Origin: an uncultured Dehalococcoidales bacterium
Lineage (GTDB): Bacteria > Chloroflexota > Dehalococcoidia > GIF9 > UBA5629
Assembly (NCBI GenBank): GCA_964437795.1
Contig: CAYTIC010000004.1
Location: 3,475 to 67,474 of the forward strand
Reading direction: 5' to 3'
DNA: 64,000 nt
Shown: one piece after another, positions 10,815 to 52,777 of the stretch
Position numbering within the stretch: the first letter of the stretch is position 1
How the letters are laid out: the number at the start of each line of letters is the position of its first letter
Translations under genes and position numbers: made by a program
The notes under the pieces: model-generated
Seen by the model: the letters and a program-made list of their open reading frames with translations, nothing else
The model's database searches: none
What the model was told of the DNA's origin: nothing

Positions 10815-12164
10815 ATGTCGAAGTTACTATACCTGGCATTGGCATTGATCATTACTCTCAGTTCAGCTTGTATCACAGTTGTCCAACCCGGGACCAATAC
10901 GCCAGGCGGCACAACAGCCGATGGAAATAGGCCCGCAGCTTTCATAGATCTGATATCGCCCAGCAGCCTTACCTGGGGACAGGAAGTCAGCTTCACCGGG
11001 CACGGCACCACACCCACCGGCAGCATTACAGCCTATCGCTGGCGTTCCAGTATCGACGGTGACCTGAGTTCAAGGCCCACCTTTGCTACCAGCAATCTTT
11101 CGCGCGGCAATCATATAATACTGTTCTCAGTACAGAACACCGCGGGGAACTGGTCACTCGAGACCCAGGGCACGGTGAATGTCATGACCGAGGCCGGCGG
11201 CGATACCGGCGGTACTCCTCCGCCCGATGATACGATTCCGGCAACGACGCCGCCGGTGATCAATTCGTTCAACGCTTCACCGGCAGGCATCACAGCCGGC
11301 TCCAGTTCGACTCTCAGTTGGGATGTCGGCAACGCCATAGCAGTCACCATCGATAACGGCGTCGGCAGCGTGGGGCTTACAGGTACACGTGTCGTGTCCC
11401 CGGCCGTCGATACGACCTATACCCTGACCGCTGCCAATACGGCTTATTTCAGCCAGGCAACGGTAACTGTAACGGTTGCCGCCGCGGCCGCTACGAAGCC
11501 CGACCTGATAATCGAGGACATATGGAAATCGGGCGACAGGATATATTACCGCATCAAGAACCAGGGACCGGCGGCAGCGCCGGGAACGGTCACAAGGTTG
11601 ACCATCGACGGGGCTGTGAAATCTACGGATTCCGCACCGGCGCTTGCTGCCGGCGCAGCCAGCACCCAGAGTTTCAGCGGCTATGCTTATGCCTGCACCG
11701 GGGTGTCGGATACCGTGATGGTTACGGCCGATTCAACCAATGTTGCCAACGAGTCCAACGGGGGCAACAACAGCATGACCTCGACTTTCAGCTGTCTGGT
11801 ACTCGGGCCCGTGATGCCGCCGCTGGTCGCATTGAAGCCCGACCTGACCATAACAAATATATCTTTCCAGCCGGCGCCCCTTAATAAGGTGTCATTCACC
11901 GTAAAAAACGCGGGCACACTGAATTCGGGCGGCTTCGATGTCAAGCTGTATGTCGGCGGCGCATATAAAGATACGGTCCATATACCAGGCGGAATTGTAT
12001 CCGGGGGCCAGGCCACATTCACTTTCCCGATGTATCACCACGTATGTGTAATCGGCACTCATACCACCATGATGGTAACAGCCGATACGGGTGGGGCAAT
12101 CTCTGAGTCGGACGAGACCAACAACTCGCGCTCCGAGTGGTGGGGCTGTCCTCCCGCTCCGTAG
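10815..12164 (+). CDS. secreted lipoprotein with an Ig-like domain and two CARDB domains
   Basis: Signal peptide with LSSAC lipobox; two KPDL…KN(Q/A)G CARDB repeats; the Ig-like unit (SFNASP…TLSW…TTYTLTA) is shared with the FHA-protein ectodomains. Confidence 0.7.
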   Translation: MSKLLYLALALIITLSSACITVVQPGTNTPGGTTADGNRPAAFIDLISPSSLTWGQEVSFTGHGTTPTGSITAYRWRSSIDGDLSSRPTFATSNLSRGNHIILFSVQNTAGNWSLETQGTVNVMTEAGGDTGGTPPPDDTIPATTPPVINSFNASPAGITAGSSSTLSWDVGNAIAVTIDNGVGSVGLTGTRVVSPAVDTTYTLTAANTAYFSQATVTVTVAAAAATKPDLIIEDIWKSGDRIYYRIKNQGPAAAPGTVTRLTIDGAVKSTDSAPALAAGAASTQSFSGYAYACTGVSDTVMVTADSTNVANESNGGNNSMTSTFSCLVLGPVMPPLVALKPDLTITNISFQPAPLNKVSFTVKNAGTLNSGGFDVKLYVGGAYKDTVHIPGGIVSGGQATFTFPMYHHVCVIGTHTTMMVTADTGGAISESDETNNSRSEWWGCPPAP

Positions 12165-22658: not shown

Positions 22659-22676
22659 GTGCGTCAGATCAACTTT

Positions 22677-24326
22677 ATGAGAATTAGTCATATTCGAATC
22701 AGGGCGGTCCCCGTCCTGATACTGCCTTTGGTTATCGTAGCAGCGGTGCTAAGCGCCTGCAGCGGTCCCGGCATTGCGGATTCACTTGTAAAAGTACAAT
22801 CCGGTGACACGGTTGTCAACGGTATAATCATCGATAGCACCGGCTACATAGTCACCGGCGCTGGCGCGCTGGGCGACGCCGGCGCCCTGTCCGTTGAGCT
22901 TAAACCCGGGCAGAGCTATACAGGCCGTTTGATATGCAGGGATAGCGCCAGGAACCTGGCAATCCTCAAGATCGAAGGCGGTTACCCTGCGCTCAAGCCT
23001 GCCCTGCTGGGAGATTCTGATCTGGTTCATCAGTGGGATGAAGTGACTGTCTGGGGTAACATGCCGGGCACTTCAAGCCCGGTAGAATCAAAGGGCGCCG
23101 TAACTTCACTGCCCAAGGACGAGGGAACTGCCTACCTGCAGACGAATGCCGCTCTGGACCCGTCGGCGGCCGGAAGCGCCGTCCTGAACAAGGCCGGTGA
23201 GCTGGTCGGGATGGTTTCCTGGAATGCCGGACAGGTGGGCCGGGAAGGGTTCGTGCTATCTTCCAACGAGGTGAAGACGGTACTGACCCAGGCGCAGGAA
23301 GCAGAGGCTGATCCGCTTACTATCGTGTTGCCCGACCCACCGGACGTTTTCAGCGACCGCGCAGTAATATCCTGGAAGACTAACCGCCCGGCAACCGGAC
23401 AGGTGGAGTTCGGTCCAAAAGACTCGTACGGCAACAAGACGGCTTTGGATACGACCATGCTGACTACTCATGCGGCAGTACTGCAGGGACTTGTGCCGAA
23501 AATGACCTATTATTTCCGTGTGCTTTCTGAGGACTGCTGCGGCAACACGGCGGCATCCAGGGGATATACGCTCACCACCACGGCAGCAGGCGCCCAGGGG
23601 GGCAAATTCACGATCTCAAATATAGACGTCTACGATATCACCAGTTCAGCCGCGTCGGTGAGATGGATTACCAACAAACCGGCCACGGGCGCTGTAACCT
23701 ACCGGGCGGATAAAGCGACGGAATCCGATAGTGAAAGCGATAATAGTTTTGTGTACGAACACAAATTCAGGCTGAGCGGCCTGAGCCCGGAGACGCGCTA
23801 TAACGTGAGCATCAAATCTGAGACGGATTTCGATGAATCTGCCGGGCAGGCCCTGGACCCCTTCATGACGCCGCCGACTTCACCGGTCTGTTGTAAGATC
23901 AACTGCAGGATCCCCGATTTCTCTTTTAAAACACTCCAGGGGACCGATTTTACCAACAAGGATATTGCGGGCAAAAAGGTGTTCATCGTGTTTACCAAGA
24001 CCACATGCCCGACCTGCATGAAGCAGGCCCTTTTCCTTAACGATGTCATTCGAGATTGGCCAAAGGGGACCGATATGATGATGTTCATGGTGGCCAGCAG
24101 CGAGAAGAAAGCCGATGTCGAGGAGTGGATCAAGAAATACGGGCTGAACATGCCCGTTTATATAGACTCGACGGCCAACCTGGTCAGCGGGTGCCAGTTC
24201 AGGACCATACCCACGGCGCTTTTCCTGGATACCGGGTCGGTTATCAGGGACTACAAGAGCGGCGGATTCGGCAGCAAAAAAGACATGGAAGAGTCGTTGA
24301 AGCAGTTCTATCAGAAAGAGCGATAG
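22677..24326 (+). CDS. lipoprotein: degenerate S1 (HtrA-like) protease domain + two FN3/PAP-N-like domains + TlpA/ResA-like thioredoxin domain
   Basis: Lipobox LSAC; the trypsin-like region has PSAAGSAV where the GNSGG catalytic-Ser motif is expected (Ser to Ala); C-terminal TTCPTC thioredoxin motif. Confidence 0.7.
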   Translation: MRISHIRIRAVPVLILPLVIVAAVLSACSGPGIADSLVKVQSGDTVVNGIIIDSTGYIVTGAGALGDAGALSVELKPGQSYTGRLICRDSARNLAILKIEGGYPALKPALLGDSDLVHQWDEVTVWGNMPGTSSPVESKGAVTSLPKDEGTAYLQTNAALDPSAAGSAVLNKAGELVGMVSWNAGQVGREGFVLSSNEVKTVLTQAQEAEADPLTIVLPDPPDVFSDRAVISWKTNRPATGQVEFGPKDSYGNKTALDTTMLTTHAAVLQGLVPKMTYYFRVLSEDCCGNTAASRGYTLTTTAAGAQGGKFTISNIDVYDITSSAASVRWITNKPATGAVTYRADKATESDSESDNSFVYEHKFRLSGLSPETRYNVSIKSETDFDESAGQALDPFMTPPTSPVCCKINCRIPDFSFKTLQGTDFTNKDIAGKKVFIVFTKTTCPTCMKQALFLNDVIRDWPKGTDMMMFMVASSEKKADVEEWIKKYGLNMPVYIDSTANLVSGCQFRTIPTALFLDTGSVIRDYKSGGFGSKKDMEESLKQFYQKER

Positions 24327-24399: not shown

Positions 24400-26037
24400 T
24401 TAAGACCTGAATACGAAGCTGAGCGCGCCTGCAAGATCGATGGTATCACCGTCGTTCAGGGCGTGCTTGCCCGTACCCTTTATGGAGGAGCCGTTCAGCC
24501 TGGTGCCGTTAGTGCTGCCCCGGTCCTCGACATAGTACTGGCCGTTTTCATAGCTGACCGTGATATGTTGCCTGGATATCAGGTCGGCTTTGTCGGGGGC
24601 TACCATGGACTGGAAGTCCCTGCGCCCCAGAGGATTGCCGTCACCCGCCAGCGAAAGCTCGCTGCCGTTGGAGGCAACGAATTTGGCCGGTGGGCCAACG
24701 GATACCGGCGTGGTTTTGGGAGAACCTGTGGCCGGCAGTGTGGCAACGGGTGAAGTGACAGCAGGCATGGTGCCACCACGTGCGGTGCCATAATGAGCGA
24801 CCTGCGCAGCAGGCTTTCGCAGCAGCAGTATAACTATTATGATGGCGGCGGCGCCTAACAGGGCGATGAGCAGGAGATAAGGCAGCCACCAGGCCAGCGT
24901 CGAATTGCCGTTGCCTGCGCTGGGGATGGTGCTGATCTGGCTTGCAGCGGGAATTGATTCCGTTGTACCGGTATAGGCACTATCGGTGTAATAAGTGCTG
25001 CCGATATAGGGAGCTACTGTAACCGTAGTGCTGGCTACCGCCGTACCCCCGCTGTTGGATGCTGACAGGGTATACGTGGTCGTATAAGCGGGCGTTACAA
25101 CATACATACCGTTATTGGGCACCGAGCCCACCGACGGCGATATGCTGACGTTGGCCGTGTTGTCCACCATCCAGGACAATGTGGCAGTTTGTCCCGACTG
25201 TATATAGCTGGGATTAGCTGTGAATGAGCTGATCACAGGCGCGTAGACCGGGGTAGGTGTGGAAGGCACCACTACGATTGGGTAGGAAGGTGTGATCCAG
25301 GACCTGTACCACGGATAGGGATAGGGATTATATGGGGGGTAGGGAGGATATGGCGGCCGCGGATGTGGAGGAGGTGGTGGCGGCCATGGTGATGGCGGCC
25401 CCGGAGGTGGCGGACCTGGAGGTGGCGGCCATGGAGGTGGCGGACCCGGAGGCGGTGGCCCCGGAGGAGGCGGTCCTGGAGGAGGTGGTCCCGGGGGAGG
25501 TGGAGGAGGCGGATATGGGTATGCCGGCCCGCCGACGGGCGGCGCAGGTGTTATAACCTGGTCTATGATTGTTGGTGACGAGGACGGTGGTGTCGCCGGC
25601 GGCAAAGGGGGTGGTGGGAGAGTGACCTCCGGCGGAGGTGGCGTAGCCTCGGCTACAAGTGTAGGGGGCAATGGCGGCGCTGGATCTGAAGCAGGCATAA
25701 CGGTAGTCTCAGCTACCGGGGCGGAGATAACAGGAAGAATCACAGCCGACGCGTCGATTACCGGAGGCGAGAGTGGCGGAGGTGTATATATGGCTCCCGG
25801 CCCGCCGACGGGCGGCGCAGGTGTTATAACCTGGGCCATGATTGTCGGTGACGAAAGCGGCGGTGTCGTCGTATCAACAGGAGTTTCGGATGGCGCCGGT
25901 TCATCGGCGTAGAACACGCTTGCAGACCGGCTTGTTGAAACATCCTGCGCTGCAGAGGCAGGCGTAAGCGGCAGCATGAGTGCAGAGCAGATTAATAGCG
26001 CTGCCGCAAGGAACTGTATAGTTTTATTTATGTTCAT
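24400..26037 (-). CDS. single-pass membrane protein: signal peptide, Pro-rich stalk with internal repeat, Ig-like domain, TM, C-terminal cytoplasmic FHA domain (FHA paralog 1)
   Basis: AGGAGG RBS; signal peptide; extreme (PPPPG)n tract; TM LLLIALLGAAAIIIVILLL; FHA signature GRRD…SRQH…STNGT. Confidence 0.8.
   Translation of the reverse strand: MNINKTIQFLAAALLICSALMLPLTPASAAQDVSTSRSASVFYADEPAPSETPVDTTTPPLSSPTIMAQVITPAPPVGGPGAIYTPPPLSPPVIDASAVILPVISAPVAETTVMPASDPAPPLPPTLVAEATPPPPEVTLPPPPLPPATPPSSSPTIIDQVITPAPPVGGPAYPYPPPPPPPGPPPPGPPPPGPPPPGPPPPWPPPPGPPPPGPPSPWPPPPPPHPRPPYPPYPPYNPYPYPWYRSWITPSYPIVVVPSTPTPVYAPVISSFTANPSYIQSGQTATLSWMVDNTANVSISPSVGSVPNNGMYVVTPAYTTTYTLSASNSGGTAVASTTVTVAPYIGSTYYTDSAYTGTTESIPAASQISTIPSAGNGNSTLAWWLPYLLLIALLGAAAIIIVILLLRKPAAQVAHYGTARGGTMPAVTSPVATLPATGSPKTTPVSVGPPAKFVASNGSELSLAGDGNPLGRRDFQSMVAPDKADLISRQHITVSYENGQYYVEDRGSTNGTRLNGSSIKGTGKHALNDGDTIDLAGALSFVFRS
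25385..25510 (-). repeat. coding tandem repeat, ~15-bp unit (GGAGGTGGCGGNCCN on the + strand) encoding (PPPPG)n
   Basis: about 8 consecutive units visible in the DNA; lies within FHA paralog 1. Confidence 0.7.
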
Positions 26038-26057
26038 TTTATCCTCCTCTTGAATTG

Positions 26058-27641
26058 CTATATTTTAAAGGTGATACTAAGTTTATCGGCCAGCTCAACT
26101 ACATCACCGTCGACAAGGGCCTGCCTTCCATTGCCGCGGATCTCGGAGCCGTTGACCCTGGTGCCGTTTGTGCTGCTGCGGTCCTCGATATAGTATTTTC
26201 CATCTTCATACCATACGTTTATGTGCTGCCTGGATATGAATGAGGACCTTTCTCCGGGAAGAAGCTTTTCAAAGTCCTGGCGGCCTAACGTCCTGGTATT
26301 GCCGGCCAGCAGCATCTCGCTTCCGTCGGGCATAACCAACTTGGCCGGCGGAGCTTCCGTGACTGAAGTAGACGGTCCGGAATCGCCCGCTGTTGAAGTG
26401 GCGGCAGTCGATGTGGCGGCGGCAGAGGTAGAGGCAGCAGATGTAGCTGAGGCTGCCCGGGCGCCCGCTGCGCCGGTCGGATGGGATGCCCGGGGTCTCC
26501 TGACCAGCATTATGACTATCACGGTGGCCGCTATGGCCAGAAGTCCCAGAAGGCCGTAAAGCAGGTAGGGCGGTTGCTCAACTAATAAGGTTACAGCCAC
26601 CGCCTGTGTGGTACCGTCGATGTATGTGGCGGTTAGGTTGTAGGTGGTTGTTTGATCGGGCGTCACCGTCATAGTCCCCATAGCGTCGAAGTTACCCAGC
26701 CCTTCTATAAAAACCTTTACAGCGGCCGGGGCATTCCACGAAAGTACAGTGGATTGACCGGACTGTATGGTGGGCTGCTGTACGGTCAAAGTCGGTGATA
26801 CCCTCGGTATAACACTGATACTGGTGTTGGCGGTAACCGTGCTGCCTGAACTGCCCGTTGCCGACAGGGTGTAAGTGGTGGTTGCACCTGGGGTAACGGT
26901 CGTTGAACCCGATGTGCCCACTGTCCCAATCCCCGGAGTAATGGCGACGTTATTAGCGTTTGTGGTGGTCCAGGTAAGGGTGACCGTCTGTCCGACATCT
27001 ACCGACGATGCATTTGCACTGAAGGAGTTGATCACAGGCGGGTAGATCGGCCTGGGCGATGGCCCGCTGTAAGGGGAAATACTTCCGCGCGTATAGTTGA
27101 AGCTCAGGGTGCGTGTCGACCATGAGAAGCCGGAGTTGTACCACATCTTCCAGACATAGAGACCGTCGGGGTCCCATGATTCGGCGCTGAACGGCCCGAT
27201 CCGCCACATGCCCGCGTAGGGCCTGTACCACCTGTAGCACAGCCAGTGGCCATAGGGGGTGCTTCCCTGTGGGTAGTATTCCCACAGGTAAAAGTAACCC
27301 GGGCCGTTAAATGATACAACCAGGTAGCACAGGTCATTGCGGTACAGGTTGTACAACGTTTGCCCGTAGCTGGTCACAAGGTAGGCATTTACGATCGAAC
27401 CGGCAGCTCCCGGCGGGGGTGGTGTCGGGACCGTCATCTGGAGGCTGGGCCAGGTCTGATTGTAAGTATCAACTGCGACCGGGGGCTCAACCATTTCGCC
27501 GCCATCGTCCGGCGGTTGCCAGCTTTCATCGGGATTGACCGGTGGGGATGGCTGAGCCTGAACAGGCGAAAATACTGCAGCCGCTGCAGATACGACCATG
27601 AATGTGATCAGCAACGGTATAATTATCTTTTTCATATACAT
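26058..27641 (-). CDS. single-pass membrane protein: signal peptide, aromatic-rich ectodomain, two Ig-like domains, TM, C-terminal FHA (FHA paralog 2)
   Basis: AGGAGGTGA RBS; YLWEYYPQG…WR(I/L)GPF domain shared with paralog 3; Ig-like repeats shared with paralog 1; FHA GRQD…SRQH…STNGT. Confidence 0.8.
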   Translation of the reverse strand: MYMKKIIIPLLITFMVVSAAAAVFSPVQAQPSPPVNPDESWQPPDDGGEMVEPPVAVDTYNQTWPSLQMTVPTPPPPGAAGSIVNAYLVTSYGQTLYNLYRNDLCYLVVSFNGPGYFYLWEYYPQGSTPYGHWLCYRWYRPYAGMWRIGPFSAESWDPDGLYVWKMWYNSGFSWSTRTLSFNYTRGSISPYSGPSPRPIYPPVINSFSANASSVDVGQTVTLTWTTTNANNVAITPGIGTVGTSGSTTVTPGATTTYTLSATGSSGSTVTANTSISVIPRVSPTLTVQQPTIQSGQSTVLSWNAPAAVKVFIEGLGNFDAMGTMTVTPDQTTTYNLTATYIDGTTQAVAVTLLVEQPPYLLYGLLGLLAIAATVIVIMLVRRPRASHPTGAAGARAASATSAASTSAAATSTAATSTAGDSGPSTSVTEAPPAKLVMPDGSEMLLAGNTRTLGRQDFEKLLPGERSSFISRQHINVWYEDGKYYIEDRSSTNGTRVNGSEIRGNGRQALVDGDVVELADKLSITFKI

Positions 27642-27798
27642 AAATCACCTCCGGGTGAGCTGTATGCTTTTATCCAGTATAAAGGTGTCGTCCCCACTCT
27701 GCTTGACCACTGCCTTACAAGTGCCTGACAATTTTATGATAAGACGGAGGTTAACCGATTTTGAGACAGGATAATATCACACTGAAGGGGAAAACAGA

Positions 27799-28905
27799 CT
27801 ACTGGTCGGACCTGAGCTTAATGCTGGCCTTGCCGGCCATCTCTATTACATCTCCGTCATGCAAATCCACCAACCCCGCACCCCTTATATCCCGGCCGTT
27901 GACGGTAGTGCCGTTTGCGCTGTCCATATCCTCGATAAAAGGCTTTCCTTCCTCGAAACTGATCCTGAAGTGCCGCTTGGATATCGCTCCCAGTTCATCC
28001 AGTCCCAGCGACCTGGCGATATGGGCCCGTCCGATTATTTCGCTTTCGCCGCCCAGCCGTATCTTCTGCCCGTTGGGCAATTCCAACGTAGCCAGGGCTG
28101 TTCCGCGCACCTGTGTGCGTGCCGGCGCCGACGGTTTCTCGAGCAGTTCTACCAAGGGTTGATTCACCTCGTTTTGCGGATAACGCCGTTCTCGCAGGGA
28201 CCGGCGCACGAGCCACCCCATCAGTACGATGAGGACTATGATTGAAGGGGCAATCAGCAGGGTCACGGGATTGGTGATGAATTTAATAAACTGGTCGCCA
28301 GGTGATACCGGCGGCACTGCTGCGGGGGTTGAAACGGCCTGCGTATTTTCTCCCGTGCCTTTTTCGTAGTCCCAGTAGACAAGGTCGCTTTTCTGTGTAC
28401 CGCCAGTCGCCCACTGTCCGTTTCCATAGAAGAAAAACCTGTAGATATGCTGCCCTACAAGCTCGTCCTCACCCGGCCAGAACGGACCAAGCCGCCATCT
28501 CCCGGGCTCCAGCAATTGCCATTTATAGGCTATCCATTTTCCCTGGCTTTCACCCCCTGAGGGGTAATACTCATATATATACAGCCAGCCCGGGGTATTG
28601 ATGTCGACATCGAGGTACCATTGCTCATCCCCCGACACTTTGTGGCCGCCAGCGGTGAACTTCCCCCACAGGCCGGCAATCAGCCCCGGCGGCGCGTCTG
28701 AAGGCTGTGCCGTAGCGCCCTGTAACACGAGGGTAACGGGCGGCTTTATCTCGCTATGCTGGGTATCGCCCTCGGGTTCGGGAATTGTGTAGTTCTCGGT
28801 CGGGGCGCCCATGGCATAAGCAGGTACGTGTGTAATAACGGCGGCGCCCAGTGATGACAGTAGAATGGCCAGCGTAAATACAAGTGCAGGTATCCGCCGG
28901 CTCAT
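27799..28905 (-). CDS. single-pass membrane protein: signal peptide, aromatic-rich ectodomain, TM, C-terminal FHA (FHA paralog 3)
   Basis: Start ATG overlaps the STK stop (ATGA); FHA GRAH…SKRH…SANGT. Confidence 0.8.
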   Translation of the reverse strand: MSRRIPALVFTLAILLSSLGAAVITHVPAYAMGAPTENYTIPEPEGDTQHSEIKPPVTLVLQGATAQPSDAPPGLIAGLWGKFTAGGHKVSGDEQWYLDVDINTPGWLYIYEYYPSGGESQGKWIAYKWQLLEPGRWRLGPFWPGEDELVGQHIYRFFFYGNGQWATGGTQKSDLVYWDYEKGTGENTQAVSTPAAVPPVSPGDQFIKFITNPVTLLIAPSIIVLIVLMGWLVRRSLRERRYPQNEVNQPLVELLEKPSAPARTQVRGTALATLELPNGQKIRLGGESEIIGRAHIARSLGLDELGAISKRHFRISFEEGKPFIEDMDSANGTTVNGRDIRGAGLVDLHDGDVIEMAGKASIKLRSDQ

Positions 28906-29921
28906 TTGGATACCTCCAGTGCTTTCACCTCGCCGGTGCTTGAAACCAGGAGGGCTGTCCTCATGGCCACGGCGCTGGCAAACCTGCTGCCGGGGGAGTA
29001 CATAATGGACTGCGCGAGACAGCGGGCAGTCTTTTTAGAGAAGCCTGCTGAAATCATGTGGTCCGCCACCGTGCCGGCCTCCGCATAACTGCGCGGCCAG
29101 GAGGTGTGGATCAACTCGGTGCACAGGTCGTTGGGTTGCCTGAGTGTGAGCAGGTATATGCAGGTCTGGGCCAGGCCGCACAGGTCGCAGCGCTGGTCGC
29201 TCTCACCGCCGATGAAAAGTTCAGGTATGTCAAAACCCTTGTTAGCTATCTGGGTGAAGGGGTCAGTCCTGATGGTGTCCTTCTTCATGCTTTCCAGGCT
29301 TTTGGCCGTGCCGAAGTCGATCAGCTTAATGCCGCCATTGCCGCTCAGCATGATGTTCTTGGGATTGATGTCCCTGTGCACGATGCCGGCAGCATGGATA
29401 TAGGCCAGGGCATCCAGCGCCTGGCCGGCCCAGAACAGGACCTTTTGCTCACCGGCCGATGTCCTTGGCGAGGAGGACATGATGGTTTCACCTGTTATCA
29501 ACTCAAGCACCAGGTGGAATTCTCCCCTGTAATAAAAATCATCCAGATATGTGACTATGTTGGGGTGCTGCAGCCTTTTCAGGAAACCTGCCTCCTGGCG
29601 CAGCTTGTCCAGGTATACGTTGTCCATGGTAGTGCCCCTGCGGGGCGTCTTGATGATGCATTTCCTGCCGTTGGTGCGGTCCCTGGCCAGCCAGATATTC
29701 GCCATGCCCCCCTGTTTGAATGCCGGCGCTTTGAGCTCATAGCGGCCGTTAACGCGATGTTTGCTTTCAGGCTGGGCCGGCTGCGGCCGCAGGGGCTCTC
29801 CGCGGCGCAGTGCGGAAGCCCTCATTTTGCGCCTCTGGATTGCCTGAATAATGGCCACAATCACAGGTACACTGGTGAAAACCAGCGCAATGACTATTAC
29901 GAAAAGGGTAGGATCGTCCAT
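28902..29921 (-). CDS. Hanks-type Ser/Thr protein kinase, N-terminal TM anchor, no extracellular sensor
   Basis: VAIK-like lysine (CIIKTP), HRDINPKN catalytic loop (atypical spacing), DFG, IPE; ATGA overlap with the PP2C stop. Confidence 0.85.
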   Translation of the reverse strand: MDDPTLFVIVIALVFTSVPVIVAIIQAIQRRKMRASALRRGEPLRPQPAQPESKHRVNGRYELKAPAFKQGGMANIWLARDRTNGRKCIIKTPRRGTTMDNVYLDKLRQEAGFLKRLQHPNIVTYLDDFYYRGEFHLVLELITGETIMSSSPRTSAGEQKVLFWAGQALDALAYIHAAGIVHRDINPKNIMLSGNGGIKLIDFGTAKSLESMKKDTIRTDPFTQIANKGFDIPELFIGGESDQRCDLCGLAQTCIYLLTLRQPNDLCTELIHTSWPRSYAEAGTVADHMISAGFSKKTARCLAQSIMYSPGSRFASAVAMRTALLVSSTGEVKALEVSK

Positions 29922-30724
29922 CAGGCTGTTCTTACCCCCGTCTTTGCCGATATCAAAGCCTGCCAGGAAGGAAGGCCGCCCGGCCTGGCGATAATGACCG
30001 ATATATTGTCCGGGCCGCCGACCAGGTTGGCCTGCGAGACCAGGTCGGAGCAGGCCTGCGAGGGACTGGCCGAAGCGAGCACCGTTTCCTCGATTTTATC
30101 CGTAGGGAGCACTCCGCAAAGGCCGTCCGAGCACAGGAGCACGTTGTCGCCGGCGTATAGCTTGATCTGTATGAGGTCCGGCACGCTGTTTGCACTGTAT
30201 CCCAGCACGCGTGTTATCTCGTTGCGGCGAGGGTGGGCTAAGGCTTCACCGGACGATATCTGCCCGGTATCTACAAGCTCCTGCACCACTGAATGGTCCG
30301 TTGTGACCTGTATGGTCTCCCTGGAGTTGATAATATAACAGCGGGAGTCTCCAATATGCGCCACGTACATGTCCTGGCCTATCAAAAGGGCGGCAGTGAG
30401 AGTGGTACCCATGCCCTGCAGCGATTTTTCCGCTGCGGCTTCGAGGACAGCGCTGTTAGCCTTGCTGAAGGCAGCGCCCATCAGTGGCAGCCCCGGCTTC
30501 GACGACCTGGTCAGCAAACCGGAGATACATTCAGCCTGGAAAATCCTGATAGCCAGGTCGCTGGCTATCTCCCCGGCATCGTGGCCGCCCATCCCGTCCG
30601 CGACGGCTAACAGGCCTGCCGATACCATTCCGGAGTGCGTCCGCAGGTCAAAGGTGCTGCAGAAGATGCTGTCTTCGTTAAGCTTTCTCACCAGGCCGGT
30701 GTCCCAGCCGTAACCAGTGTCCAA
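29921..30724 (-). CDS. PP2C-family Ser/Thr phosphatase
   Basis: LAVADGMGGHDAGEIAS metal-binding motif; TTG start 6 nt after an AAGGAG RBS. Confidence 0.85.
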   Translation of the reverse strand: MDTGYGWDTGLVRKLNEDSIFCSTFDLRTHSGMVSAGLLAVADGMGGHDAGEIASDLAIRIFQAECISGLLTRSSKPGLPLMGAAFSKANSAVLEAAAEKSLQGMGTTLTAALLIGQDMYVAHIGDSRCYIINSRETIQVTTDHSVVQELVDTGQISSGEALAHPRRNEITRVLGYSANSVPDLIQIKLYAGDNVLLCSDGLCGVLPTDKIEETVLASASPSQACSDLVSQANLVGGPDNISVIIARPGGLPSWQALISAKTGVRTA

Positions 30725-30746
30725 TCATTTCTCCTTAGTTACTTTA

Positions 30747-31229
30747 TTAACCTGACCTGAAGATCAGTGTGGCGCCCGGCTGCCTGGCCAGTTCTATCCT
30801 GTCGCCATCTTTAAGAGGCTGCTTACCTTTATGATGGATATCAATGTTGTTGACCCTGGTGTGATTGGTGCTGCCGGTCCCGTCGCGTCCGTGATCCTGC
30901 ACATAATAGGTTCCCTTTTCATATGTCAGCAGCAGATGCTGCCTGGAGATGCTCATTAAAGCGTCCTGCTGGAGTTTGCCCTCAAAGTCACTGCGCTGAA
31001 TGAACTGAGGAATGCTATTGAGGACGATTTCATTACCCCCCGGCAAGATCAGCCTGGCCGTAGACCCCAGCGGCTCAGCTTCAATGATCTCCTCAACAGC
31101 CATGCCGCCGAGCGCAGGTTCCGACTCTGTGAACAGGTAATTGCCGCAACTATAACAGAAAAAACTGCCGGCGCCGTTCAAACCGTGACAGGCCGGGCAG
31201 ATTACACTGACGCTTATTACCTCTTCCAT
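30747..31229 (-). CDS. zinc-ribbon + FHA domain protein
   Basis: CPACHG…CYSCG zinc ribbon followed by FHA SRQH…STNHT. Confidence 0.75.
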   Translation of the reverse strand: MEEVISVSVICPACHGLNGAGSFFCYSCGNYLFTESEPALGGMAVEEIIEAEPLGSTARLILPGGNEIVLNSIPQFIQRSDFEGKLQQDALMSISRQHLLLTYEKGTYYVQDHGRDGTGSTNHTRVNNIDIHHKGKQPLKDGDRIELARQPGATLIFRSG

Positions 31230-31268
31230 AACGATCGTACAATTGTAAGCTGCCGAAGATGATATTGC

Positions 31269-31297
31269 TTGACAGCTTACTGACGAATACCTAATAT
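31269..31297 (+). promoter_or_regulatory. sigma70-type promoter (TTGACA-N17-TAATAT) for the FHA-wHTH regulator
   Basis: -35 31269-31274, -10 31292-31297; in the divergent intergenic region. Confidence 0.45.
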
Positions 31298-31387
31298 AAA
31301 TCTGACATATTTAAACTCTATGACGATTGTCCTTGATATATTATACTGCAAGAGGATATACAGACTTTACAAGGCTGGAGTCCGGTG

Positions 31388-32071
31388 ATGGCTTTCATCA
31401 TAGTTAAGAAAGGTGATGCTGAGGATATCGGTAAAATATTTACCCTGAGCAGGGCTAATATGGTGATAGGCCGCCGCACACCAAAGTATAAGCCAGACAT
31501 CGAGTTAAGCGATGAAGCCGTCTCAAGGCGGCATGTCGAGATCATTGAGAAAGACGGCCGTTATCAATTGCGTGACCTGGGCAGCACAAATGGGACTATG
31601 CTGGATGATGACAGGATACTGCCCGGCAAGCTATATGAGTTGAAACACAACTGTAAAATTGGATTGGGGGTAGCAGCAGGCCCGGCGCAGGTCTTGTTGA
31701 TTTTCAAGCAGTCGGAGAGTACTAACCTGATGGGGAGGCAGGGGGCAAGTCCGGTTGAAAAGGTCATTGCAACGGACGTCAGCTGGCTGAAGATCGACGA
31801 GGCCAGGAAGGAGGTCTGTGTGGACGGCGAACCCGTAAAACTGTCGCGCAAGGAGTACGAGTTGCTGATGTTCCTTTACCAAAACGCCGGCGCAGTCTGC
31901 CTGCGCGACGAGATTATTAAGGTTGTGTGGTCCGAGAGCCAGGACCCGGCTGCCATATCCGACGCAACCCTCGACCAGCTTGTGCACCGTCTGCGCGAGA
32001 AGGTTGAACCCGAGCCTGTTAATCCAACACGCATCATAAGCCGAAAAGCCTTCGGCTATATGCTGGTTTAA
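31388..32071 (+). CDS. FHA domain + OmpR/PhoB-type winged-helix DNA-binding domain transcriptional regulator
   Basis: N-terminal FHA (GRR…SRRH…STNGT); C-terminal trans_reg_C (KLSRKEYELLMFLYQNAGAVCLRDEII…LDQLVHRLREKVE). Confidence 0.8.
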   Translation: MAFIIVKKGDAEDIGKIFTLSRANMVIGRRTPKYKPDIELSDEAVSRRHVEIIEKDGRYQLRDLGSTNGTMLDDDRILPGKLYELKHNCKIGLGVAAGPAQVLLIFKQSESTNLMGRQGASPVEKVIATDVSWLKIDEARKEVCVDGEPVKLSRKEYELLMFLYQNAGAVCLRDEIIKVVWSESQDPAAISDATLDQLVHRLREKVEPEPVNPTRIISRKAFGYMLV

Positions 32072-33023: not shown

Positions 33024-34049
33024 TTACACCTGTATCGCTATGCCGTGGTCCCTCAGGTCGGTGAGGATCTCAAATGCCGCTCGGTGTCTGGTGTAGAGAA
33101 GCTCCGATACGCCTTTATTGCCGCCCTCTTTATAGGTGATCCTGAGTTCGCACGAGGCCAGTTTGCTGTTCAGGCAGTGCTTGTCGCCACCCGGCGGATT
33201 ATAGTAATTGAGGCCGGCGAACAGCTCGTGCCCGGCAAATATGCGGCCCACCAGGTCAATTTCATCGTTGGCTGACGCGAAATGCCAGTCGAAATAAGTG
33301 AATTTTCCCTGCGCCCTGATCGTTTGCGCCATGTTGTTGAGCGCGTATTCCCGCCCTTTATGCCTGAGCACGACGGGAGTCATACGGGGGGTCCACAACG
33401 GCCCTATTTTGACCCTGGCCGTAGCTACCTCGAGGAAGCTCTCAGGGCTGTTATCGAAGCCCGCAACCTGTCCCCAGGCGTAAAGGTCGGTATGTTTTGA
33501 TCCCCAGTTGTGGTTCTGGCTGCCCACCCAGTTTTCGATCTTGACCTGGCTGCCGTCGATGGTCAAAGCGCCGTTGAATACGGCCATGGGAAGCGGGACG
33601 CAGGCCTTGGCCTTGGGGAATTTGCCTGAATACATTTTAAGGGGCAGCAGGAACAGCGGCCGGCCCTCACCGTGGTAACCCAGGTCCCAGGAAATCGTGT
33701 GATTGTGCGAGCTTGCACTTCCGTTCAGCCGGTCCTTGTTCAGGACGGCATCGCCGATCCTGACATCCAGCCCTGACCGGTTGAATGAGCCCTGGCTGAT
33801 GGGGAGTTCCTTCTTAACAGCTATGCTGGAGGAAGTTTCGCCGTTAAAATAGACCGCCCATAGCTCGCAGATTGCTTTTTCGGGGTGATTGTGGGGATTG
33901 AAAATGGTGTACCTTATCCAGAAAGCCAGGGGCCGGTCGGGATGGTTGGCCCGCAGGAAGTAGCTCTCATAGTGTCCCGTTTGTTGGCCGGGCCGGTAGA
34001 TCGCGTTATTGGCAGAGCTTAACCAGTTTGTCTCCGTTTTCTTCATCAT
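33024..34049 (-). CDS. hypothetical protein (possibly AttH/CrtC-like beta-fold; uncertain)
   Basis: GGGAGG RBS; no firm motif recognised. Confidence 0.5.
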   Translation of the reverse strand: MMKKTETNWLSSANNAIYRPGQQTGHYESYFLRANHPDRPLAFWIRYTIFNPHNHPEKAICELWAVYFNGETSSSIAVKKELPISQGSFNRSGLDVRIGDAVLNKDRLNGSASSHNHTISWDLGYHGEGRPLFLLPLKMYSGKFPKAKACVPLPMAVFNGALTIDGSQVKIENWVGSQNHNWGSKHTDLYAWGQVAGFDNSPESFLEVATARVKIGPLWTPRMTPVVLRHKGREYALNNMAQTIRAQGKFTYFDWHFASANDEIDLVGRIFAGHELFAGLNYYNPPGGDKHCLNSKLASCELRITYKEGGNKGVSELLYTRHRAAFEILTDLRDHGIAIQV

Positions 34050-41298: not shown

Positions 41299-42858
41299 CT
41301 ATATTATTCTGTTATCTTTGCCCTCCCAGTATTTTTCCTTGACCAGGCGGCGTAATATCTTGCCTGTGGGAGTCATGGGCAGCTCTGTGACGAAGTCCAC
41401 CGTGCGCGGACGTTTATAGCCGGCCAGCTTTCCCTTGGTGAACTCGACGATCTCTTCCTGTGTAGCGCGCATCCCGTCCTTCAGCAGGACCACCGCCTTG
41501 ACCGACTCACCCCAGAATTCATCCGGTACGCCGACGATGGCGACCTCTCTGACGGAAGGATGTGTATAAATGACGTTCTCAACTTCAGTTGGGTAGATGT
41601 TCTCACCGCCGGAGATTATCATGTCGTTTTTACGGTCTACCAGGTACAGGTAATTTTCCTCATCGACATATCCCATATCGCCTACAGCACACCATTCGCC
41701 GCGGAAGGCGGCCTTGGTGGCCTGGGGGTTCTTTAAATACTCTTTAAAAATGTTAATGCCGCGGGTATATATCTCACCTATCTCCCTGGCTGCCATCTCC
41801 TTTCCTTCGGGGTCCAGGATCTTGATCTGCTTTCCGAAAACGGCCTGCCCCACCGATTTCATCTTCCTGATCTGGTCCTCGGGACGCAAAGCAGTTACCA
41901 CCCCCGTCTCTGTGGCGCCGTAGCCTTCGTAAAGCTTGGCGTTCTTAAAAAAGGACAGTATCTCGGTCTTGGTTTTGGCCGATATCGGCGCAGAGGAGGA
42001 GAGCAGAGTTGTCATACTCGAGACATCGTATTTGTTGCGTACCTCTTCGGGTAAAGCCAGGATAATGTTGTACATAGTCGGCACCATGCTGGAGATATTC
42101 ACCTTATACTTATCGATTATCTGCAGGATCTCCTCGCCGTTGAATCCGCGCAGGTGATATATGTGGATGGTCATACCGCTGAGGAACGAGGCCATGACAT
42201 TATTGATGGAATTTGAATGGAAGGTGGGCATGACGATAAGGTTGACCATATATGAGGTTACGAATTCAATATTCATTACCACTGCAGTCTCAACGCCCGT
42301 TTTGTGCAGGGTGACCGCCCCTTTTGGGAAGCCGGTTGTGCCTGATGTATAGCCGATGCACAGGATGTCCTCCGGAACGATTTTAACATCGGGCTCTTCC
42401 GCGGAGCCTTCTTTTACCAGGTCCTGATAAAGGCCGCCCGCATCGCGGAATTTTTTACTCCCCACTACCCAGTATTTATCAACCGGTATTTGTTTGATAT
42501 CCTTAGCCGCTATTTCCATGGTCGGGATGAATTCTTCTCCCAGTATCATGGCGCAGGCATCGGAGTTCTCGACGACAAACTTGATCTCCGGCGCCTGGAA
42601 GCGCCAGTTCACGGGAACCATGATAATACCGGTTTTGGAGCAGGCCATAATTAACTCGACGAACTGATAGCAGTTCATGAGCAATATCCCCAGCCTGTCT
42701 CCCTTCTTTAATCCGCTGGCAAGCAGATTGTTGGCAATGCGGTTAACCCGGCGGTTGAATTCCTCGTATGTAAAAGAGGCATCGTCACCGACGATAGCAT
42801 TGCGCTTGGGATACCTGTTGACACTGTTGAGCAGAAGTTCGCCTACTACCAGATTCAT
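41299..42858 (-). CDS. AMP-dependent acyl-/aryl-CoA ligase
   Basis: YTSGTTGFPKG AMP-binding motif; AGGAGGAGG RBS. Confidence 0.85.
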   Translation of the reverse strand: MNLVVGELLLNSVNRYPKRNAIVGDDASFTYEEFNRRVNRIANNLLASGLKKGDRLGILLMNCYQFVELIMACSKTGIIMVPVNWRFQAPEIKFVVENSDACAMILGEEFIPTMEIAAKDIKQIPVDKYWVVGSKKFRDAGGLYQDLVKEGSAEEPDVKIVPEDILCIGYTSGTTGFPKGAVTLHKTGVETAVVMNIEFVTSYMVNLIVMPTFHSNSINNVMASFLSGMTIHIYHLRGFNGEEILQIIDKYKVNISSMVPTMYNIILALPEEVRNKYDVSSMTTLLSSSAPISAKTKTEILSFFKNAKLYEGYGATETGVVTALRPEDQIRKMKSVGQAVFGKQIKILDPEGKEMAAREIGEIYTRGINIFKEYLKNPQATKAAFRGEWCAVGDMGYVDEENYLYLVDRKNDMIISGGENIYPTEVENVIYTHPSVREVAIVGVPDEFWGESVKAVVLLKDGMRATQEEIVEFTKGKLAGYKRPRTVDFVTELPMTPTGKILRRLVKEKYWEGKDNRII

Positions 42859-42926
42859 ATTTGTCCTCCTCCTAAATTGTGTGAATAAAATGATCGGAAT
42901 TTGAGCCGGATTTCGCGTCGCCGATG

Positions 42927-43490
42927 TTATTTCTGTTTTTTACTATCAGTCGATTCATCAAAATCGGTGATTACTTGTATAGTGCTCTCTGTCCACTCCA
43001 ATAAAGCTTCGTACTGTGCAAGGACCCTGTCCACAACCAGCGTCCAGTAAAGCTTATCCAACGGTGCTGCCAATCCCCACAGATCTGATTCAATGGCGGG
43101 CTTGGCCATTGACTTATATTTCTCAATCTCGCCTTTCAATTTCTTAGAATATTTCTTAATGTTGTTAATCATGTCTTTTTTTGGTGCGCGGCTTCCATAC
43201 CATAGCTTTAATAGAAGTGTTTCACGCGGGACAACAAATTCAGGAGGCTCTTTGAGCCATCTCGTCAATTCCGTTTTACCCTTATCGGTGATGGTAAATA
43301 CGTTTTTGTATGGAAGCTTCTCCTGGTCGACCCTTTCACATTCGATTAATCCTTCCTCAGTCAGCATGTTCAATTTGCGATAAATCTGACTCTGGGAGGG
43401 CCGCAGGGGTTCGAAAAACATTTTTGATAAATCGTAACCTGTTTTCGGCCCGTAACTTAAAAATCCCAGTAGACCGTATTTCAATGACAT
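42927..43490 (-). CDS. PadR family transcriptional regulator (with C-terminal extension)
   Basis: N-terminal wHTH typical of PadR (GLLGFLSYGPKTGYDLSK…). Confidence 0.8.
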   Translation of the reverse strand: MSLKYGLLGFLSYGPKTGYDLSKMFFEPLRPSQSQIYRKLNMLTEEGLIECERVDQEKLPYKNVFTITDKGKTELTRWLKEPPEFVVPRETLLLKLWYGSRAPKKDMINNIKKYSKKLKGEIEKYKSMAKPAIESDLWGLAAPLDKLYWTLVVDRVLAQYEALLEWTESTIQVITDFDESTDSKKQK

Positions 43491-43756
43491 AACAATAAGC
43501 CCCTATAACTAACTCATTTATTAGCGAATGGCATCCGCCCAGGGGGATATATGCCCAGGTCAATATACGCCGGGGCATAAGATAACATATGGTTGAAATG
43601 CTTGTCAACCCCAATTATTTCGAAATAAAAGGGTGATTAAGAGAGGTGTTAATCAGGTGCTTGTCATGAATATGGAATGGAGCATCCCGTTCATAGTTGG
43701 GACAAACTACATATTGAGAGGAAAGAAAAGTTCATGGAAAATGGGCGTGTCCGGTA

Positions 43757-44536
43757 TCAGCTGGAATGGTTTTTTGCGATAACTGCCGCTCCCAGTGCGG
43801 CCATGAGGCGTGGGTTGTCGGGCACCAGGGCTTTGACGGCGAGCTTTTCTTCGATGGCCTGCACCAGGCCGATATCGAGCGCCCCGCCGCCGATGACGGC
43901 AAAATCCTTCTCCAGGGCAACACCGCGTGACATGCCGCTGATCTTATCGGCGATAGAACGATGTATGCCGGACAGAATGTCCTCGGGTTTATCGCCCTGA
44001 GAGATGCGGGTGATGACCTCGGTTTCCAGGAACACCGTGCATGAGGTGGAGAAGCTGGAAGGCCTGGTAGACTTTAGCGAGAGCGGCCCGATCTCATCGA
44101 TGCCGATCTGCAGTATGCGGGCCACGACCTGCAGCAGGCGGGCGCTGCCGGTGGCGCATATCTCGGAGACATTGAAGTTAATTACGTGCCCTTCGCCGTC
44201 CATGGTAATCACCTGGCTGCCCTGTCCGCCGATATCGATGATTGTGCGAACAGTGGGGAAAGTCAGGTTGACGCCCCGGGCATCGCAGATGATCACGCCG
44301 TGATAGCTGTCGGCGTTGGCGTTTCTCCCTCCAATGCCGGTAGCTGCGCTGGCTGTAATGGCGGAAGGTTGAAGGCCGGCCCGTTTGAGGGCTTCAGCTT
44401 TGACGGCCGCAGATGTCGTGGCATAGTTGGTGCCGGAGGGTATCACAATAGAACCCACGATGTTCTTCCGGCCGTCTATTATGACGGCTTTGCTGGCGGC
44501 CGCACCGATGTCTATGCCGAGGTAGAATTCAGTCAT
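43757..44536 (-). CDS. BcrAD/BadFG/HgdC-family ATPase (activator/electron-transfer subunit)
   Basis: Acetate/sugar-kinase ASKHA fold (LGIDIGAAASKAV…). Confidence 0.8.
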   Translation of the reverse strand: MTEFYLGIDIGAAASKAVIIDGRKNIVGSIVIPSGTNYATTSAAVKAEALKRAGLQPSAITASAATGIGGRNANADSYHGVIICDARGVNLTFPTVRTIIDIGGQGSQVITMDGEGHVINFNVSEICATGSARLLQVVARILQIGIDEIGPLSLKSTRPSSFSTSCTVFLETEVITRISQGDKPEDILSGIHRSIADKISGMSRGVALEKDFAVIGGGALDIGLVQAIEEKLAVKALVPDNPRLMAALGAAVIAKNHSS

Positions 44537-52712: not shown

Positions 52713-52769
52713 TTGACAGGCCGCTGATATATGTTAGAATGTGGTCTGTAACTGACCGTCGGTCATTTA
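52713..52769 (+). promoter_or_regulatory. promoter TTGACA-N16-TAGAAT plus palindromic operator TAACTGACCG-T-CGGTCATTTA upstream of tetR
   Basis: -35 52713-52718, -10 52735-52740; 21-bp imperfect palindrome 52749-52769 at the expected TSS. Confidence 0.45.
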
Positions 52770-52777
52770 TAAAAACC

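Follow-up and report, generated by a model that had tools for sequence, protein, structure and literature searches.

Do the crowded genes for FHA-domain proteins, a Hanks-type Ser/Thr kinase and a PP2C phosphatase in the genome of an uncultured Dehalococcoidales bacterium belong to one signalling system, and where would the signal of such a system go? The genes lie at positions 24400-32071 of the analyzed window, a 64-kb stretch (64,000 nucleotides) of contig CAYTIC010000004.1, and comprise seven open reading frames (ORFs) that follow each other almost without gaps; g1 to g6 are read from the minus strand, and g7 is divergent and read from the plus strand. They encode three paralogous membrane FHA proteins, an anchored Hanks kinase, a PP2C phosphatase, a Cys4-ribbon-FHA protein and a divergently transcribed protein in which an FHA domain is joined to an OmpR/PhoB-type winged helix-turn-helix (wHTH). 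The cluster is a real phosphothreonine (pThr) signalling module, strongly conserved, not yet characterised and built of known parts. Moreover, the region between g6 and g7 contains a near-invariant sequence block, a new finding here.

A seven-gene cluster kept as a unit

The seven genes are the following, with Pfam matches for all named domains above the gathering score (20.7 bits for FHA, PF00498; 26.2 bits for Trans_reg_C):

g1, 24400-26037, minus strand: membrane FHA protein, 545 aa (FHA 52 bits, residues 470-535)
g2, 26058-27641, minus strand: membrane FHA protein, 527 aa (FHA 45 bits)
g3, 27799-28905, minus strand: membrane FHA protein, 368 aa (FHA 52 bits)
g4, 28902-29921, minus strand: Hanks-type Ser/Thr kinase, 339 aa (Pkinase 106 bits)
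g5, 29921-30724, minus strand: soluble PP2C, 267 aa (PP2C 57 bits, plus PP2C_2)
g6, 30747-31229, minus strand: Cys4 zinc ribbon and FHA, 160 aa, first gene of the operon (FHA 42 bits)
g7, 31388-32071, plus strand: FHA and winged helix, 227 aa (FHA 62 bits, Trans_reg_C 64 bits)

These matches reproduce the inventory of FHA, Pkinase, PP2C and Trans_reg_C domains that an initial annotation had drawn from the sequence. The residues that contact pThr (Arg at beta3-4, Ser-x-x-His at beta4-5 and Asn at beta6-7) were found in five out of five FHA domains, so that the loss of these residues, considered in the initial annotation as a possible objection, does not apply. By profile and by contact residues, all five FHA domains are predicted pThr readers. 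Genes g3 and g4 overlap by 4 bp in the g3/g4 stop region, and g5 and the start of g4 by 1 bp; both overlaps recur at other loci and indicate a single operon running from g6 to g1. The locus is hence one operon plus the divergent regulator gene g7.

In order to evaluate conservation, all seven window proteins were used as tblastn queries. The complete syntenic set was recovered in ten loci (L001-L010), with identities to the window proteins of 60-79% for g7, 58-83% for g4, 64-84% for g5, 54-78% for g2, 51-73% for g6 and 35-59% for g3, and with similarity to g1 in its C-terminal half only. Approximately 45 further metagenome loci showed the same arrangement wherever the contig was long enough, and a scan of a genome collection, which is not a taxonomic census, yielded at least six full-length orthologous species loci and at least two distant ones. 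Two contigs with g7 homologues of 67% and 60% identity carried all seven genes, with order and orientation unchanged, among other neighbours, namely Ku/LigD on one of them and an enoyl-CoA hydratase (ECH) together with a trypsin-redoxin protein on the other. Since the seven-gene synteny is kept across loci whose proteins are only 35-85% identical, the cluster is not a product of chance, and the comparison of loci indicates that all seven are co-inherited whereas their flanks change. Conservation of the gene neighbourhood had been named in the initial annotation as a way of checking its proposal, and the seven-gene order was indeed kept at related Dehalococcoidia loci.

A reduced form of the arrangement was detected in two further cases. 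In Thermoflexus hugenholtzii, an FHA-wHTH gene whose product is 30% identical to g7 is divergent from a receptor-type gene encoding a kinase, a transmembrane (TM) segment and an ectodomain, the latter being a Thr/Pro-rich low-complexity tail, and no PP2C or membrane FHA genes were found near this pair. On an Anaerolineales contig, a kinase gene adjoins an FHA-wHTH gene. From these two pairs the kinase/FHA-wHTH combination looks like the older part, which suggests, at the level of gene content, that it is the ancestral core and that the seven-gene form is a Dehalococcoidia elaboration.

The regulator and the region between g6 and g7

The protein encoded by g7 consists of an N-terminal FHA domain (residues ~14-95), a linker and a C-terminal OmpR/PhoB-type winged helix (~130-226), with no receiver domain and no BTAD. 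Its start is most likely the ATG at 31388 (227 aa) rather than 31385, because this start matches homologues of 222-236 aa; the 227-aa ATG form is a recorded protein (P0001), and an exact look-up of the GTG-start form gave no match. Homologues of g7 fell into 410 clusters, the best 120 of which were 60-100% identical, 222-236 aa long and all composed of FHA and wHTH, and the named sources were all Dehalococcoidia or Chloroflexi metagenome-assembled genomes. The conservation of g7 is very strong, at 60-88% identity over more than 100 clusters. Threonine 112 (T112), in the linker motif F-K-x-S-E-x-T-N-[IL]-[IM], is among the 80 invariant columns of the homologue alignment, and it is also present in the 30%-identical Anaerolineales and Thermoflexus homologues. 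Many FHA domains prefer an aliphatic residue at position +3 (pT-x-x-[I/L/M]), and the +3 residue of T112 is aliphatic.

No PDB chain matched both g7 domains together, the matches being to the separate domains only; among solved FHA domains, that of g7 is nearest to GarA/OdhI. Considered as an OmpR/PhoB response regulator, g7 has Trans_reg_C and lacks the receiver, in whose place it carries the FHA domain. When compared with response-regulator equivalogs it scored far below all cut-offs, matching over residues ~102-227 only.

Three elements were distinguished in the region between g6 and g7:

31266-31310: near-invariant block of ~45 bp, TGCTTGACAGCttaCTGACGAATACCTAATATAAATCTGACA (alignment of 8 loci), candidate operator of the FHA-wHTH protein
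31336-31351: second conserved block, ATATATTATACTGCAA (same alignment), between the candidate operator and the g7 start
31242-31247, minus strand: TACAAT, candidate -10 of the g6-g1 operon, 12 nt before the g6 ATG, with a putative promoter role

The consensus of the first block over the eight loci is TGCTTGACAGCnnnCTGAYRAATACCTAATATAAATCTGAYA, and the flanking proteins of these loci are only ~60% identical. Within the block there are three YTGAYR direct repeats (R1, 31269-31274; R2, 31280-31285; R3, 31302-31307), with start-to-start distances of 11 and 22 bp. The repeats are interleaved with the best sigma-70-like site of the region, the plus-strand g7 promoter TTGACA-17-TAATAT (-35 at 31269-31274, -10 at 31292-31297; 10/12 matching positions), of which they cover the -35, the spacer and +1. 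Winged helices of the OmpR/PhoB type bind 6-7 bp direct repeats with 11-bp phasing. Because repeats phased at 11 and 22 bp fit this mode of DNA binding, the block is read as the predicted operator of g7, a candidate assignment based on motif geometry and on analogy.

An exact scan of metagenomes with the central 18-mer of the block returned more than 120 stretches, and 80 loci were analyzed. At all 68 loci with the extended block (59 distinct sequences), it stood between orthologues of g6 and g7. The other 18-mer matches had neither the flanking TTGACA nor cluster genes and were set aside as chance matches. Among the 59 distinct sequences, TGC preceding R1, GCT inside the spacer and AAATCTGA following the -10 were conserved outside the search pattern, and some of the conserved positions of the block are bases of the promoter spacer, for which a plain promoter has no need. 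When the window sequence was shuffled, two or more matches to YTGACR-N5-YTGAYR occurred in 2 of 100 shuffles. Output through the FHA-wHTH protein, as proposed in the initial annotation, agrees with the presence of a near-invariant block of phased repeats in the divergent promoter region, found at this locus only among the loci analyzed.

The only other YTGACR-N5-YTGAYR match in the window is TTGACAGGCCGCTGATA (52713-52729, plus strand), 10 bp upstream of a TetR-family gene (52739-53371), and it is probably just the -35 region of that gene. In Thermoflexus, the sequence between the divergent genes (L012, 9797-9925) has TGAC-core motifs (ATGACG, TGTCAT and ATGACT) and an inverted repeat, ACGACGAT...ATCGTCGT, around TATAAT, which may be a related operator.

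The promoter of the g6-g1 operon is less sharply defined. Upstream of g6 neither a Shine-Dalgarno sequence nor a -35 consensus is present, and a TAnAcT pattern, corresponding to the candidate -10, is conserved at -22 to -27 from TTGACA in the 59 distinct sequences, at a constant distance of 12 nt from the g6 ATG. Relative to this putative -35-less promoter, R1, R2 and R3 would lie at about -37, -48 and -70. A promoter scan had also given a minus-strand site, TCGTCA-16-TATCAT (31286-31259), which was rejected as the operon promoter since it is not conserved at other loci. The second block, ATATATTATACTGCAA, may be a further -10-like element (TATACT on the plus strand, TATAAT on the minus strand) or a leader element, and it is overlapped by a 9/12 promoter-like match on the plus strand (31320-31347). 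An Rfam search of the intergenic region gave no RNA family. Inside the g3 coding sequence, a match to the whalefall-1 sRNA (28465-28570, minus strand; 25.5 bits against a gathering score of 37, E 0.003) is probably noise.

Membrane proteins, kinase and relation to known systems

The initial annotation had described g1, g2 and g3 as paralogues, and BLASTP supports this: g1 and g2 have in common the Ig-like domain, TM and FHA (2e-38), and g2 and g3 match each other in FHA (5e-21) and in an unnamed N-terminal ectodomain (1e-15). As read from the sequence, the three proteins are built on a common chassis of N-terminal signal peptide, ectodomain, one TM helix, linker and C-terminal FHA. In g1 the signal peptide is followed by a long proline-rich low-complexity region (with seven PPPPG units), one Ig-like domain, the TM helix, a Thr-rich linker and the FHA domain; orthologues keep the C-terminal half only, and the proline-rich spacer varies among lineages. 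A 15-bp tandem array of ~7 copies in g1 (25376-25504) encodes (PPPPG)n inside the larger proline-rich region. This proline-codon repeat explains a GC-skew spike at 24-26 kb, and the array region may vary in length, as the N-terminal half of g1 is not conserved among orthologues.

In g2, which has more than 70 orthologues (about 515-520 aa, 56-90% identity), the signal peptide is followed by an unnamed beta-sandwich (~83-184), two Ig-like domains (203-278 and 284-355), the TM helix (359-380), a linker (381-427) that is disordered and composed of Thr/Ser/Ala, and the FHA domain (433-526). An AlphaFold model of g2 (35 orthologues, mean pLDDT 76) placed three beta-sandwich domains before the TM helix, and the disordered linker and the FHA domain after it. 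The shorter g3 has a signal peptide, an unnamed beta-sandwich of the g2 type with the motif PGW/Y-x-Y-x-x-EYYP...G-x-W...W-R-x-GPF, TM, linker and FHA. Conserved Thr residues were found in the linkers of both g1 and g2.

A Foldseek search with the g2 model returned nothing but arrays of tandem Ig-like domains (GhpA, alpha-2-macroglobulin MG domains, ICAM and S-layer proteins). By profile search, the N-terminal domain of g2 and g3 is also N-terminal in surface proteins that lack FHA and contain CARDB, Big_3_5, Filamin or TSP3 modules; the profile retained FHA columns, so that most of its 1315 matches were FHA-only and the informative ones are those starting below profile position ~100. The g3 ectodomain alone gave 5 matches as a query, limited by the word filter, and the g2 ectodomain was used in its place. 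One protein found in this way, P0323 (611 aa), combines the N-domain with Big_3_5, CarboxypepD_reg and Filamin, and ends in a double zinc ribbon instead of FHA, this ribbon resembling that of g6. Within the window, a 449-aa protein (10815-12164, plus strand) has two C-terminal CARDB domains, CARDB being the surface beta-sandwich class that accompanies the g2/g3 N-domain elsewhere. Taken as folds, the ectodomains amount to beta-sandwiches of generic Ig-like/FnIII/MG type and a proline-rich spacer, as found on adhesins, S-layers and matrix proteins, and they look like cell-surface interaction or structural modules.

The kinase g4 consists of a hydrophobic segment (residues 6-28), the sequence RRKMR and a kinase domain alone, an organization conserved in 17 orthologues. 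Its TM anchor is N-terminal and leaves ~5 residues outside the cell, with no ectodomain and no PASTA domain. The motifs IIKTP, HRD.NPKN, DFGTAK and DPFT.I.NKGFDIPE are invariant in the 17 orthologues, including the DPFT of the activation loop. By profile, catalytic Lys, HRD...N loop, DFG and an activation loop ending in PE, g4 is a Hanks-type kinase with predicted activity, and its nearest solved structures are PknA and PknB. Against the PASTA kinase model NF033483 it scored 114.6 bits (cut-off 450), over residues 55-214 only and without a C-terminal TM or PASTA. The observation, made when the locus was first annotated, that the large ectodomains belong to the FHA proteins rather than to the kinase is borne out by sequence topology, by the g2 model and by the kinase orthologues. 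The phosphatase g5 passed the NCBIfam equivalog Stp1/IreP (NF033484; 237.5 bits against 230, residues 8-246, model positions 3-231 of 232), and on this profile match it is assigned as a PP2C of the Stp1/IreP/PstP type. In g6, the four Cys of the ribbon (CxxC-x10-CxxC, CPAC...CYSC) are invariant in 17 orthologues, as is a variant of the FHA loops (FI[EQ]RS, SRQH and GSTNHT, with QR and NH for GR and NG), and some g6 orthologues carry a double zinc ribbon.

This division of parts bears on the split-sensor idea of the initial annotation, which is plausible. Three diverged ectodomain architectures stand on similar TM-FHA chassis, no orthologue of the kinase carries an ectodomain, the ectodomain of g1 differs strongly among lineages, as expected of a surface-exposed recognition region, and the Thermoflexus homologue unites kinase and ectodomain in one protein, as a split version predicts. 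In its strict form, however, in which g1, g2 and g3 would each bind a distinct extracellular ligand, ligand occupancy would reach the sensor-less kinase by way of FHA docking and a single transcriptional output would control a regulon beyond the operon, we consider it quite unlikely. Generic Ig-like sandwiches and a Pro-rich spacer make up the ectodomains, with no Cache, PAS, PASTA, substrate-binding protein (SBP) or similar fold among them, the Thermoflexus ectodomain is a mere Thr/Pro-rich low-complexity tail, and no second operator copy was found among exact 18-mers, so that a wider regulon is not supported yet. The term ligand-binding, applied to these adaptors in the initial annotation, thus goes further than their Ig-like folds, and ligand binding is unproven.

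Among known systems, the locus is most similar in logic to PknH-EmbR of Mycobacterium tuberculosis, where a Hanks kinase gene likewise stands beside the gene of a transcription factor with an OmpR/PhoB-type winged helix and an FHA domain, both of which are present in g7. PknH has its own extracellular sensor domain and g4 has none, and the EmbR locus is without the PP2C, membrane FHA proteins and Zn-ribbon FHA protein present here. EmbR needs its FHA domain in order to dock on PknH and to be phosphorylated by it, and transcription is enhanced by the phosphorylation (PMC9239209). EmbR, of the SARP type, has the order wHTH-BTAD-FHA (PMC9239209), whereas g7 is FHA-linker-wHTH with no BTAD match and falls outside EmbR/SARP.

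The operon backbone, in turn, resembles the actinobacterial cluster fhaA-fhaB(fipA)-pstP-rodA-pbpA-pknA-pknB, with FHA genes, PP2C and a PknA/B-like kinase in one operon and in that order, and FhaB/FipA has in common with the chassis of g1, g2 and g3 the succession of TM, linker and C-terminal FHA. Yet the scores against FhaB/FipA (NF049868, cut-off 125 bits) were 32.8 for g1, 36.3 for g2 and 39.7 for g3. Unlike in the actinobacterial cluster, no RodA, PbpA, PASTA repeats or FhaA-type DUF3662 were found here, the membrane FHA proteins are triplicated, with Ig-like ectodomains about 200-390 residues long, the phosphatase is soluble, and an FHA-wHTH regulator with a conserved candidate operator is added.

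This resemblance opens a different explanation, namely that the cluster is a Dehalococcoidia descendant of the Terrabacteria fhaA/fhaB-pstP-(rodA-pbpA)-pknA/pknB module and serves as an envelope or division scaffold. In such a case, g1, g2 and g3 would be effectors whose phosphorylation-dependent assembly organises surface, S-layer or division structures; the signal would run from the kinase to the ectodomain proteins, and g7 would provide homeostatic operon feedback only. The phosphatase passes the equivalog of the family paired with PknB-type kinases, the kinase is nearest to PknA/PknB, and g2 and g3 match the FhaB_Rv0019c model over TM, linker and FHA (model positions 18-145 of 158). In mycobacteria, the Rv0014c-Rv0020c locus has the order FHA gene, PP2C, kinase, which is the order seen here. 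The ectodomains, moreover, resemble the RbmA matrix protein, S-layer proteins and MG domains, their N-domain is also present on non-signalling surface proteins with CARDB, Big_3_5 or Filamin, and the detection of the operator only at the module's own promoter fits pure feedback. Nevertheless, the FhaB scores are 33-40 bits against 125, the window has no RodA/FtsW, PBP or PASTA genes and no FhaA DUF3662 domain, and neither the FHA-wHTH regulator as the most conserved member nor the occurrence of the kinase-regulator pair alone in Thermoflexus would be explained. A scaffold role is therefore possible but, in our judgement, rather unlikely.

In the threonine-phosphorylation pathway of type VI secretion (T6SS), kinase, PP2C and FHA reader are also encoded together (PpkA-PppA-Fha1/TagH), and FHA binding to pThr on a membrane component switches the system (PMC3953482). 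In the case of the present cluster, the scores against T6SS Fha/TagH (TIGR03354, cut-off 120 bits) were 22-45 bits, and no T6SS genes were found in the 64 kb; PpkA has a periplasmic domain and g4 none, and a DNA-binding protein provides the output here. Another parallel is offered by Rv1747/PknF and GarA/OdhI, in which Thr-rich disordered segments adjacent to FHA become phosphorylated and are subsequently bound, either in cis or in trans, leading to clustering in Rv1747 and to an on/off switch in GarA. The disordered Thr-rich linkers of g1 and g2 and the invariant linker Thr of g7 are analogous, whereas the partner domains differ (an ABC transporter in Rv1747, none in GarA). EspM of Mycobacterium marinum has an N-terminal FHA and C-terminal DNA-binding domains (PMC11005418); in the passages of that source it has two HTH domains around a helical bundle and an ESX-1 context, as compared with the OmpR/PhoB winged helix of g7, and those passages describe no adjacent kinase/phosphatase operon.

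The closest relatives of the cluster are PknH-EmbR and fhaB-pstP-pknA/B, the former in logic and the latter in operon backbone. The initial statement that the cluster looks unlike known systems holds in so far as membership tests of the named families failed, and does not hold for its parts, given the Stp1/PstP-type PP2C, the PknA/PknB-nearest kinase and the PknH-EmbR logic. That no characterised system has this architecture agrees with our search, in which no paper on the module was found and no curated family for such clusters was matched.

As for the surroundings, the remaining window genes are for acyl-CoA metabolism (ECHs, a 3-hydroxyacyl-CoA dehydrogenase, a thiolase, CoA transferases and ligases, and HGD-D/BcrAD), MFS transporters, purine biosynthesis and assorted hydrolases. 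No T6SS, FtsW/RodA, penicillin-binding protein (PBP) or other division genes were found in the 64-kb window, which extends to this whole length an absence reported at first for the vicinity of the cluster. The G+C content of the cluster was unremarkable, and the word island, used in the initial annotation, does not suit a gene set of normal G+C, conserved across related Dehalococcoidia loci, which is part of the ordinary chromosome and not mobile.

An anti-phage defence or accessory kinase system (PD-T4-6, MADS or TerY-P-like), or a link to secretion (YscD-like of type III, TagH/Fha of T6SS, or type VII), was also considered, given that the kinase matched the PADLOC models PD-T4-6 and mad6 (1e-43 to 1e-34) and that the FHA domains weakly matched Yop-YscD_cpl and TagH. 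However, the PADLOC matches cover the generic kinase domain only; g1, g2, g3, g6 and g7 matched no PADLOC model, g5 gave weak matches to PDC-M21C (E 3e-06 and 8e-05), and no defined system was complete. The TagH scores were 22-45 bits against 120, and among the five FHA proteins Yop-YscD_cpl reached its gathering score in g7 only, where it overlaps a stronger plain FHA match; it fell short in the other four, with no match in g6. With no secretion or defence genes in the 64 kb, and with a cluster that is conserved as a unit, of ordinary G+C and neither patchy nor mobile, we regard this explanation as very improbable.

Several other features of the window were recorded. A 555-aa protein with Trypsin_2, Pur_ac_phosph_N/fn3 and Redoxin/AhpC-TSA domains is encoded at 22659-24326 (plus strand), adjoining g1; a similar 550-aa protein is located near the cluster in L004 and not in L001, and it may be a partly conserved neighbour. 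At 42001-44000, where a PadR-family regulator gene (42927-43490) and the intergenic sequence upstream of it are located, the G+C content drops locally to 0.47, as compared to ~0.55 in other parts. Three ORFs had no Pfam match: 33024-34049 (minus strand, 341 aa), just beyond the ECH gene that flanks g7, 51677-52681 (plus strand, 334 aa) and 57685-59076 (plus strand, 463 aa).

A predicted phosphothreonine circuit

Taken together, these results are best accounted for by a self-contained module of pThr writer, eraser and readers, with an FHA-wHTH output that feeds back on its own divergent promoters, a reading to which we give a probability of about 0.55. The membrane FHA proteins g1, g2 and g3 are, on the best reading, co-receptors or scaffolds. 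The sensor-less kinase g4 would autophosphorylate and phosphorylate Thr residues in the disordered juxtamembrane linkers of the FhaB-like g1, g2 and g3, whose Ig-like ectodomains may report or organise the state of the cell surface (contact, crowding, matrix or S-layer association). Contacts between FHA domains and pThr would build a membrane complex of these three proteins and the kinase, which the PP2C g5 would reset, and g6 may act as a soluble adaptor or as a competitor for the same pThr sites. The regulator g7 would dock through its FHA domain on the phosphorylated kinase or complex and would be phosphorylated, most likely at the linker residue T112; a contact between pT112 and FHA, either between two g7 molecules or within one, could then alter oligomerisation and DNA binding, a functional analogue of the phosphorylation-driven dimerisation of OmpR/PhoB response regulators. 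Bound to R1, R2 and R3, g7 is predicted to repress its own promoter, as the repeats lie over the -35, the spacer and +1, and to activate the g6-g1 operon, as they lie near -37, -48 and -70 of the -35-less g6 promoter.

Several points weigh against this circuit. Every protein-protein and protein-DNA step in it is our inference; kinase activity itself is an assumption, the glycine-rich loop of g4 being degenerate (KQGGMA), and T112 could be structural. On the side of the inputs, the ectodomains have no recognisable ligand-binding sensor fold (no Cache, PAS, PASTA, SBP or similar), and the g3 linker has no conserved Thr among orthologues. On the side of the output, the conservation of the block was partly built in by the search pattern, its independent part being the positions outside TTGACA, CTGAYR and AATACCTAATAT; a search restricted to exact 18-mers found no second copy of the operator beyond the module's locus; the assignment of the operon promoter depends on a 4-of-6 hexamer pattern; and ATATATTATACTGCAA could shift the promoter model.

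A bolder version of the feedback circuit would make the module the Hanks-kinase counterpart of a two-component system, with FHA and pT112 in place of the receiver and its phosphorylated Asp, and with sensing entrusted to three Ig-like FHA co-receptors. We hold this version to be speculative and on balance unlikely. If true, it would imply a dimerisation switch of a winged helix that reads three phased direct repeats without a receiver domain, and a modular co-receptor design nearer to eukaryotic receptor complexes than to known bacterial receptor kinases.

Dehalococcoidia are abundant and mostly uncultured bacteria of subsurface and marine environments, and a literature search of one library on Dehalococcoidia or Dehalococcoides with FHA found no paper on the module or on their Ser/Thr phospho-signalling. 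The concentration of five readers on one writer/eraser pair is unusual, and the module offers a testable model of how several FHA readers are served by such a pair, of how FHA couples a Hanks kinase to transcription without a receiver domain, and of how a sensor-less kinase receives its input. For an organism without genetics, a defined candidate operator (three YTGAYR boxes) and a candidate phospho-site (T112) ease in vitro tests. Since the cassette is intact at every related locus examined, with the regulator and the operator among its most conserved parts, it likely controls something central to Dehalococcoidia cells.

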